A stretch of DNA of 64,000 nucleotides, taken from assembly GCF_055900595.2 (NCBI RefSeq), contig NZ_CM148325.1, one strand, 5' to 3'. The position numbers and the translations under genes are program-made. Below are positions 8,802 to 12,348 of this stretch, in pieces. How positions within the stretch are numbered: position 1 is the first letter of the stretch; every line of letters starts with the position of its first letter. The notes beneath the pieces are model-generated. The model saw nothing but the letters and a program-made list of their open reading frames with translations, was not told the origin of the DNA and did no database searches.

Positions 8802-10583
8802 TCAGGCGCTCAATGACTCCTCTTCACGCACGCTGGCTTCCAGCTCTTCGCCCGCTAGTTGCAGTTGATACATCTGCCAGTAGCGCCCCTGGGCGGCCAG
8901 CAGTTGCTGGTGAGTCCCCTGTTCCACAGCCTGACCACGATGAAGCACCAGAATGGTGTCAGCATCAATAATGGTCGATAAGCGGTGAGCAATCACCACA
9001 AGCGTAGTGTGTTCACGCACCGCCGCCAGTGCGTGTTGAATCGCCTGTTCAGTACCGGAGTCAATGCTGGCGGTTGCCTCATCAAGGATCAGGATTTGCG
9101 GCGTCTCCACCAGCACGCGCGCCAGTGCCAGCAGTTGCTTTTGCCCGACGGAGAGATTATTCCCCTGCTCGCCCAGCGGCGTATAAATACCATCGCTCAT
9201 GCTGCGCGCCAACTCCGCCAGTTGCACAGTTTCCAGCGCCTGCCAGACGCGTTCTTCGGAGATATCACGTCCCAGCGTCACGTTGGCGAGGAATGTATCC
9301 GCCAGCACTACCGGATCTTGCTGCACCATTGCCACGCCCTGGCGCAGCGCGCTGTGACTTAGCGAACTTAATGGACGGCCATCAAGGCGAATATCACCTT
9401 CCGTTAGCGGGTAATAGCCCATCAATAAACTGGCGAGGGTACTTTTACCACTGCCGGTATGCCCCACCAGCGCCACAAAGTTGCGCGAAGGCACCGAGAG
9501 ATTAATGTTCTTCAGTACCAGATTGTCATCGCGATAAGCAAATGACACGTTATCGACTTCAATGTTGCCGCTCTGTAAGGGGCGATCATCATTGCCATAT
9601 TGCTGGCGCGGTCCGTCCATCAGCTCAAACACGCGCTCACCAGCAACAACAGCCTGTTGCAGCATCGCCTGTTGCGTGGTCAGTTCGATTAAGGGTTCGT
9701 TAAGCCGCCCAAGATAGCTGATAAACGCATACAGTACGCCCACTTCAATGGTACCGCTGGCGGAGAAGCCAAACAGCATCAACAAGCCACAAAGAATGAG
9801 CGATGAAAACAGACTCAGCAGCGGACGCAGCAGAAAACCGTCGAGGCGCAGGGTTTGCATCCTCGCCATATAGTGTGAACGACTGGCCTCACCCATACGT
9901 TCGCCAAATCGCGCCTGCTGACGGAACTGCTGGATGACGCTCATGCCATTGATGATTTCGTTAAAGCCGTCGTTGATATCTGCCAGATAGGCGCGCACAC
10001 GACGGACAATCGGCGTGCTGTAACGCTGGTATATCACCATTACCACCAGCACCACCGGGAAAATCATTATCGCTACCAGCGCCATTCGCCAGTCGAGACT
10101 AAACATCGCCACCAGCATCGCACCCACCAGGGCGGCGCTACGCAGGACCGTTGCCACTACGGTAACGTAGAGGTCGCGGATCACTTCAGTATCATTGGTA
10201 ACGCGGGAAATCACCTGCCCGACCGGCTGAGTATCAAACTCGCTTAATGGCTGGCGCAACGCGGCATCCATCACATCCGTGCGCAACTGTTGTACCACGC
10301 CAACCGCCGCCCGATTAAACAGCAGCGATTGCGCGTAATGTAGCCCAGCGGCAAACAGTTGTAGCCCAACATACGCCGCAGCCAGCCCGGCAACCACTTT
10401 CAACGGCAGGTTATTTTTCGCTACCATATTGTCGATAAAATAGCTGATAAGCAGCGGCCCGCTGACTTCTGCCGCCGCCGCAACCCACATCATCAGGACC
10501 GCAATCCCCAACGGTTTACGCCACGGCGAACCGTACGCTAACAGGCGCTTGAGAGTCGGCCACAGTTGGCTAAAACTACGCAC
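8802..10583 (-). CDS. mdlB: ABC exporter permease/ATPase MdlB, 593 aa
   Basis: GTG start at 10583 ([15 protein letters not shown]...) overlapping the mdlA stop; six TM helices plus Walker A (GHTGSGKST), ABC signature (LSVGQKQ), Walker B (ILILDEA). Confidence 0.88.
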
Positions 10584-12348
10584 CGATGGCCTCCTCGCGA
10601 ATTTCCGGAGCGTCGTCGAGCGCCGCCTCCAGTTGTTGATAGCGATACATATCGCGATACCAGCCGCTTTGTTGTGCCAGCACATCATGATTGCCACGCT
10701 GGGCGATATGTCCGTGCTGCATCACAATAATTTCACTGGCTTCCGTCAGTGCCGAAAGGCGATGGGCACTGATGATTACCGTTCTTCCCTGCCCCCACTG
10801 ACGCAGGTTATGCAGGATCTGGTGCTCTGTGCGTCCGTCCACCGCCGAAAGCGCATCATCAAGGATGAGGATTTCCGCGTTGACTAATAACGCACGAGCA
10901 ATGGAGATACGCTGTTTTTGCCCACCAGAAAGCATCACGCCGCGCTCGCCCACCTCTGTATCGTAACCTTGCGGTAGACGCAAAATATCGTCATGTACGC
11001 TGGCTAACCGCGCGACATGCTCAATCTCTTGCTGTGTGGCATTCGGGCAACCCAGCGCGATGTTGTTCGCCACGGTGTCGGAAAAAAGGAATGGCGTCTG
11101 GCTGACCACCGCCAGGCGGCTACGCCAGCTATCGAGTTGTAACTTCGTCAGAGGAATATCATGAAAGCGAATATCCCCCTCGCTGACGTCGAAATGACGC
11201 TGAATGAGCGACAACAGGGTACTTTTGCCGGAACCAGTCGGCCCGCAGATACCCAGCATCTGACAGGGTTTCAGGGCGAAATTGACGTTTTCCAGCGCAG
11301 GATGGTCAGTCTGCGGATACATAAACTGGCGAATATTTACATCCAGTTCACCACGACCTTCTGGCACGGGTTCGCTACCATCGTTCACCACCGGCGCTTC
11401 CGCCAGCATCGCGCGAATACGGCTGTACGCAGCACTACCACGCTCCACTATGTTAAACATCCATGCCAGCGCCAGCATCGGCCAAATCATCAGACCTAAA
11501 TACATCATAAAACTGGTGAGCTGGCCCAGCGTTAAACTGCCCTGCACCACCATCCAACTACCGCCGCCAATCGCCAGCAAGTTCGCCATACCAATCGCGA
11601 TATAGATGGTCGGGTCGAAACGAGCATCAATACGCGCCACCCGCATGTTTTTTTTGCCGGTATCTTCGGCATCCGCGGCAAATAACGCCGACTGGCGATC
11701 TTCCAGACCAAAGGCTTTGATCATGCGGATACTGGTGAGGCTTTCCTGGGTGCGGTCATTAAGACTGGAAAACGCCGCCTGTGCCAGCTTAAAGCGTTCA
11801 TGCAAGGCATCGCCGTTGCGCTTAATCATGATCGCCATCACTGGCATAGGTAACAGGGCAAATAAGGTCAACTGCCAGCTAATTTGCGTAGACATCATAA
11901 TCAACACAGCGCAGCCCATCACCAGTGAATCCACCAGCGTCAGCACCCCTTCTCCGGCGGCAAACACGACCCGATCGACGTCATTGGTCGCTCGAGCCAT
12001 GAGGTCACCCGTGCGATGACGCAGGTAAAACTCAGGATGCTGCCGGCTTAGCTGACGGTAATAATCTTCACGCAGTTCAACAGCCAGTTGATAAGACGCG
12101 CCAAACAGCAATACGCGCCAGACGTAACGCAGGAGATAAACCACAACAGCAATCAGCACCATGGTGGCGATCCACATCAGGATCTGCCCGGTAGTAAAGT
12201 GTTGTTCTGTCACGCCATCGACAACAATACCAACCACTTTCGGCGGAACCAGTTGCAGCATCGCGATAATGACAAGCAAGGCAACAGCCCCGAGATAGCG
12301 ACGCCATTCCCGACGGAAATACCAGCTTAATTGAGCAAATAATCGCAC
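10576..12348 (-). CDS. mdlA: ABC exporter permease/ATPase MdlA, 590 aa
   Basis: TM domain plus Walker A (GPTGSGKST), ABC signature (LSGGQKQR), Walker B (ILILDDA); GTG start. Confidence 0.9.

Follow-up and report, generated by a model that had tools for sequence, protein, structure and literature searches.

Two genes for half ABC exporters, mdlA and mdlB, lie side by side in the window, as we call the whole stretch of 64,000 nucleotides that was analysed. Both are read from the minus strand, which the preliminary description had left unstated, and mdlB begins before mdlA has ended. The two genes and the sequence that they share are these:

10576-12348, minus strand: mdlA, an SmdA-family half ABC exporter of 590 aa (open reading frame list and translation; PGAP annotation of the nearest genome)
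12346-12348, minus strand: GTG start codon of mdlA, with its first base at 12348; the TAG stop is at 10578-10576, giving 590 codons
8802-10583, minus strand: mdlB, an SmdB-family half ABC exporter of 593 aa (translation, PGAP annotation and homologue lengths)
10583-10581, minus strand: GTG start codon of mdlB, homologous to the annotated start; the stop codon of the gene ends at 8802
10576-10583, minus strand: the 8-nt overlap GTGCGTAG, made up of the mdlB start codon, two bases and the mdlA stop codon

On the coding strand the junction reads GAA ATT CGC GAG GAG GCC ATC G-GTG-CG-TAG; the mdlA stop codon begins 5 nt downstream of the first base of the mdlB GTG, and 8 nt are common to both genes. 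Sequence and translation bear out the coordinates first given for the GTG (10583) and for the mdlA stop (10576-10578), and the overlap itself is there to be seen in the sequence. The RefSeq/PGAP annotation of the nearest complete genome, NZ_CP098223, places mdlA at 1553-3325 and mdlB at 3318-5099, an identical 8-nt overlap, so the arrangement is already known from standard annotation and is an ordinary one. A 601-nt query across the junction found matches of 95-99.8% identity in 5377 of the 5426 complete E. coli genomes, and the annotation at these matches names mdlA and mdlB. Two of the 5378 junction matches in complete E. coli genomes fell in records labelled plasmid.

How constant is this geometry? 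The comparison set comprised 82 loci, namely the window and 81 relatives, of which 80 came from species-representative Enterobacteriaceae genomes (MdlB identity 84-99%) and one was the NZ_CP098223 locus. Every one of the 82 has an overlap of exactly 8 nt, in the form ATGCGTAG, ATGCGTAA, ATGGATAA or ATGCATAA, which is not due to chance; the spacing is kept although the adjoining tail of MdlA has indels. In five pairs that are more distant (41-53% identity) the junctions are -4, +5, -4, -1 and -4 nt, and in most of these pairs a GGAGG-type Shine-Dalgarno (SD) sequence stands within the last codons of the upstream gene. The -8 geometry thus appears from these sequences to be specific to Enterobacteriaceae, while tight juxtaposition appears to be general.

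Some further observations concern these distant relatives. In the distant pairs (L083-L087) the junctions lie at about 2495-2505 and take the form -4 (ATGA), -1 (TGATG) or +5 instead of -8, and two of these loci (L083 and L084) have neighbouring genes in common with the E. coli locus. Among the best representatives at 50% identity, many (P0142 and others) are proteins of about 1200 aa that align with MdlB either twice or over the second half; they are full-length transporters in which the two halves are fused.

The start site of mdlB

The six-frame open reading frame that contains mdlB runs from 8802 to 10697 and has 631 codons, 38 more than the 593 of the annotated gene. Two features bear on where within it translation begins:

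10589-10595, minus strand: GAGGAGG, a perfect Shine-Dalgarno sequence for mdlB, 5 nt upstream of the start codon and encoding Glu-Glu-Ala of the MdlA tail
10584-10697, minus strand: a 38-codon upstream extension of the mdlB frame, lying inside the mdlA coding sequence and apparently spurious

The codon aligned to MdlB residue 1 is a start codon in 82 of 82 loci, and every one of them has an SD core of at least 5 nt before it (AGGAGG in 67). The Glu codons of the MdlA tail that build this SD are GAG in 144 cases and GAA in 7, against 954 GAG to 1356 GAA elsewhere in mdlA, a bias that implies selection for the SD at the nucleotide level. Over 62 ungapped codon columns at the 3' end of mdlA the mean entropy is 0.30, 0.18 and 1.05 at codon positions 1, 2 and 3, respectively; mdlA therefore varies synonymously, at sites that are position 2 of the extension frame. 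At the junction this pattern reverses: the T and G of the mdlB start codon are invariant in all 82 loci, even though the T is an mdlA third codon position.

Could mdlB nevertheless start upstream, at the GTG at 10697 or the ATG at 10688 or 10685, and give an N-terminally extended protein? The frame is indeed open for 46 codons upstream of the 10583 start and holds these three codons, and in the window strain the canonical start has been weakened to GTG. Yet no SD-like sequence was found within 20 nt upstream of any of the three in the window. In the relatives the upstream open frame varies from 0 to 88 codons, in 29 of 81 a stop comes no more than 14 codons before the start, and MdlB homologues are 592-593 aa long. 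The extension is thus broken by stops, varies as mdlA frame and not as a frame of its own, and does not behave as a conserved, protein-like open frame with a ribosome-binding site; on these grounds the upstream start is rejected, and we give it next to no credence. The preliminary description had called the 38 extra codons non-coding, a judgement that the stops, the mdlA-frame variation and the lack of an SD uphold; translation from the upstream start of the 631-codon frame, which it had named as the observation that would overturn its account, is excluded by the comparative data as far as sequence comparison can do so. The comparison supports 10583 as the true start of mdlB, and the longer frame can be discarded.

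Start codons further downstream were considered as well. The TTG at 10511 has no SD-like sequence before it, and the ATGs at 10493 and 10490 have at most a weak G-rich stretch; starting at any of these would cut the beginning of the first transmembrane helix. The literature and datasets searched yielded no start-site or N-terminal data for MdlB, and the supplements of the TRAINSPOTTER N-terminomics study mention neither mdlA nor mdlB.

A substitution in the mdlB start codon

The GTG at 10583 had at first been taken as the normal start codon of the gene, and here the picture changes. Of the 81 relatives, 77 have ATG at this position, the nearest E. coli genome among them, and GTG is shared by the window only with Klebsiella michiganensis, K. 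spallanzanii and one Enterobacter asburiae strain. It is derived and lineage-specific:

10583, minus strand: lineage-specific SNP, A>G on the coding strand, which gives mdlB a GTG start in place of ATG and MdlA a Gly in place of Asp589

The A>G change converted an ancestral ATG in the lineage of the window strain. Because mdlA and mdlB overlap here, the one change hits both genes, MdlA codon 589 going from GAT (Asp) to GGT (Gly). Over 6601 nt the window and NZ_CP098223 (strain Z0117EC0005) differ at two positions only, 8173 and 10583. The difference at 8173 is a synonymous GCT>GCC change (Ala27) in amtB.

Is the GTG real, and is MdlB still made? A sequencing error at 10583, or a mark of lost MdlB expression in an incipient pseudogene, might be suspected from the fact that a search of 5426 complete RefSeq E. 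coli genomes for the exact 71-mer returned none (the best match, at 98.6%, has one mismatch). The SNP is also predicted in silico to make positions -20 to +13 about 2.3 kcal/mol costlier to open, and to bring the probability that the start codon is unpaired down from 0.44 to 0.12. Against this, the exact MdlA-G589 protein, which requires the identical SNP, occurs on 332 public contigs, compared with 68 for the Asp589 sister haplotype. An independent assembly has the identical GTG, with a 593-aa gene called there; apart from the start codon, the mdlB frame is intact and agrees fully with that of the nearest genome; and GTG occurs at the equivalent site in the Klebsiella and Enterobacter loci named above. 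A variant that recurs on hundreds of contigs is not a sequencing error, and that explanation is rejected; taken together, error or loss of expression is very unlikely. According to the model calculations, GTG probably lowers MdlB initiation somewhat without abolishing it.

The start-codon SNP with its double coding effect is the only new item at this locus. Might it be non-neutral? We put forward, as a conjecture with a low chance of being right, that it was selected because it tunes MdlB down relative to MdlA, or that reinitiation buffers the change, in what the 332 contigs suggest is a successful E. coli lineage; a matching ATG>GTG change arose independently in Klebsiella and Enterobacter. 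If the conjecture held, the SNP would show, as an experiment of nature, how weak a start codon termination-reinitiation can tolerate.

The products as halves of an exporter

MdlA and MdlB each join a transmembrane domain (PF00664, ABC_membrane) to a nucleotide-binding domain (PF00005, ABC_tran), their genes are adjacent and co-directional, and the products are annotated as SmdA family and SmdB family. Among proteins of solved structure the best relative of MdlA is BmrC/YheI (E=3.7e-145) and that of MdlB is BmrD/YheH (E=1.2e-118), and these matches are the two chains of shared heterodimer entries. The ATP-site motifs differ between the halves: MdlA has the Walker B sequence ILILDD, in which Asp498 replaces the catalytic Glu, together with a canonical LSGGQ signature, whereas MdlB has ILILDE (Glu502) together with a degenerate, non-canonical LSVGQ signature. 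These features are kept in 81-82 of the 82 loci.

In such a transporter both halves contribute to each ATP site, one supplying the Walker motifs and the other the signature. The motifs of MdlA and MdlB are complementary, and therefore would give one consensus and one degenerate site only in a heterodimer. This combination is an established hallmark of exporters of the BmrCD, TM287/288 and LmrCD type. The complementary motifs, together with the best matches to BmrC and BmrD, support the proposal that MdlA and MdlB form a heterodimer, as the preliminary description had assumed. The main counter-indication is that mdlA and mdlB deletions differ in phenotype, from which it has been suggested that MdlA may act alone (PMC11408624); as an argument against the heterodimer this is weak. 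For SmdAB, a physical heterodimer and ATP-dependent export are reported second-hand in PMC11408624.

One residue of MdlA deserves separate mention. Residue 362 (11263-11265, minus strand), in a 17-residue segment just before Walker A, is Cys in the window. Among the loci with a readable motif this Cys is common only to the window, L001 (the NZ_CP098223 locus) and L005, and the residue is Gly in 25 others; a further 54 loci were not matched by the search pattern.

Translational coupling and comparison with known systems

The explanation that we regard as highly probable, taken as a whole, is that of the known, annotated junction of an smdAB-type operon of E. coli, mdlA-mdlB, in which an SD-led start at 10583, coupled synthesis, a BmrCD-like heterodimer and a lineage SNP come together. 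MdlB would be initiated at the codon 10583-10581, directed by the GAGGAGG in the last codons of mdlA. Because the start codon stands 5 nt upstream of the mdlA stop (spacing -8), a ribosome finishing mdlA would terminate on top of the mdlB initiation region, where it could reinitiate or give way to a fresh 30S subunit, and MdlB synthesis would thereby be tied to that of MdlA. The two proteins would together form a BmrCD-like heterodimeric type IV ABC exporter in which one ATP site is degenerate and the other consensus, and the lineage A>G change, in replacing the ancestral ATG and MdlA Asp589, would have left MdlB initiation somewhat lower.

What argues for coupling? Among co-directional gene pairs the commonest spacings are overlaps of 4, 1 and 8 nt, with -8 in third place (PMC10666635; review PMC12548453). 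A spacing between -8 and +10 nt is held to predict termination-reinitiation, and in E. coli the pairs within this range show a 4.5-fold enrichment of subunits of heteromeric complexes (PMC10666635; PMC12548453). Native E. coli pairs with such spacings that were tested showed strong coupling (PMC10666635). The mdlA-mdlB distance from stop to start is -8 nt on one strand, inside the range of about -8 to +10 nt, and the SD of mdlB lies within the end of mdlA; this spacing, the SD in the mdlA tail and the -4, -1 and +5 junctions of distant pairs fit the published coupling rules (PMC10666635, PMC12548453). The translational coupling and control of MdlA/MdlB stoichiometry that had been read from the overlap are plausible on the sequence evidence. 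In the deep E. coli proteome of Mori et al. MdlA and MdlB are essentially undetected, and their stoichiometry cannot be read from it.

Coupling could work in more than one way. An inhibitory RNA structure was sought at the junction, and its minimum free energy was no better than that of shuffled sequence (z=0.08); RNAalifold gave no consensus structure across species, and the mean unpaired probability of the SD and start was about the regional average. Since the junction has no unusual or conserved structure, and no stable one that would sequester the SD and start, coupling by RNA unfolding is unsupported. Local reinitiation, or facilitated initiation, held by SD/anti-SD pairing is for this reason the favoured mechanism.

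The main rival to reinitiation is independent initiation at the strong SD: mdlB would be translated in its own right by free 30S subunits recruited there, the overlap would be genome compaction frozen by descent, and no stoichiometric coupling would exist. The conserved, perfect AGGAGG with its 5-nt spacing could support such initiation, the junction has no sequestering structure that would make initiation depend on upstream translation, and the differing deletion phenotypes (PMC11408624) point the same way. Against this reading, the spacing is invariant in 82 of 82 loci despite the indels in the adjoining MdlA tail, the more distant pairs also keep junctions of -4, -1 or +5, and such spacings couple strongly in the native E. 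coli pairs tested (PMC10666635). We therefore hold independent translation to be unlikely, though it deserves more weight than any other alternative considered here, and prefer coupling by local reinitiation or facilitated initiation.

The initiation signals of mdlA itself are a separate matter. Its start is non-ATG throughout, GTG in 75 and TTG in 7 of the 82 loci, and in the window the sequence upstream of it (12349-12377) offers only a weak AGGA, 8 nt before the start. The initiation signals of mdlA are therefore weak; mdlB normally has ATG and a perfect SD.

The overlap as such matters little, being in standard annotation and of a class that ranks third in frequency among bacterial gene overlaps. 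The gains are modest: comparison with relatives confirms the annotated start, and the sequences lend support to a putative obligate MdlAB heterodimer with one degenerate ATP site. The polymorphism that joins ATG>GTG to MdlA D589G could serve as a natural variant for studies of coupling or of MdlAB expression.

The nearest known systems are E. coli K-12 mdlA-mdlB (b0448-b0449) and Serratia marcescens smdAB, which occupy the same locus as the window pair, in the order decR/cyuR-mdlA-mdlB-glnK-amtB. Like these, the window pair has the 8-nt overlap in RefSeq annotation and products named SmdA/SmdB family; unlike them, it has GTG in place of ATG and Gly589 in place of Asp in MdlA. BmrCD (YheI/YheH) of Bacillus subtilis is a type IV ABC exporter built as a heterodimer, one of whose ATP sites is degenerate. 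Chain C of its entries is the best match of MdlA and chain D that of MdlB, and MdlAB shares with it a catalytic Glu changed to Asp in one half and a non-canonical signature in the other, although the relationship is distant. Finally, the mdlA-mdlB junction resembles the spatially coupled pairs with -8 nt spacing (NTGNNTRR), for which termination-reinitiation has been proposed: it is likewise co-directional, with the -8 nt spacing and the SD inside the upstream gene, and its genes likewise appear to encode subunits of one complex (PMC10666635; PMC12548453).
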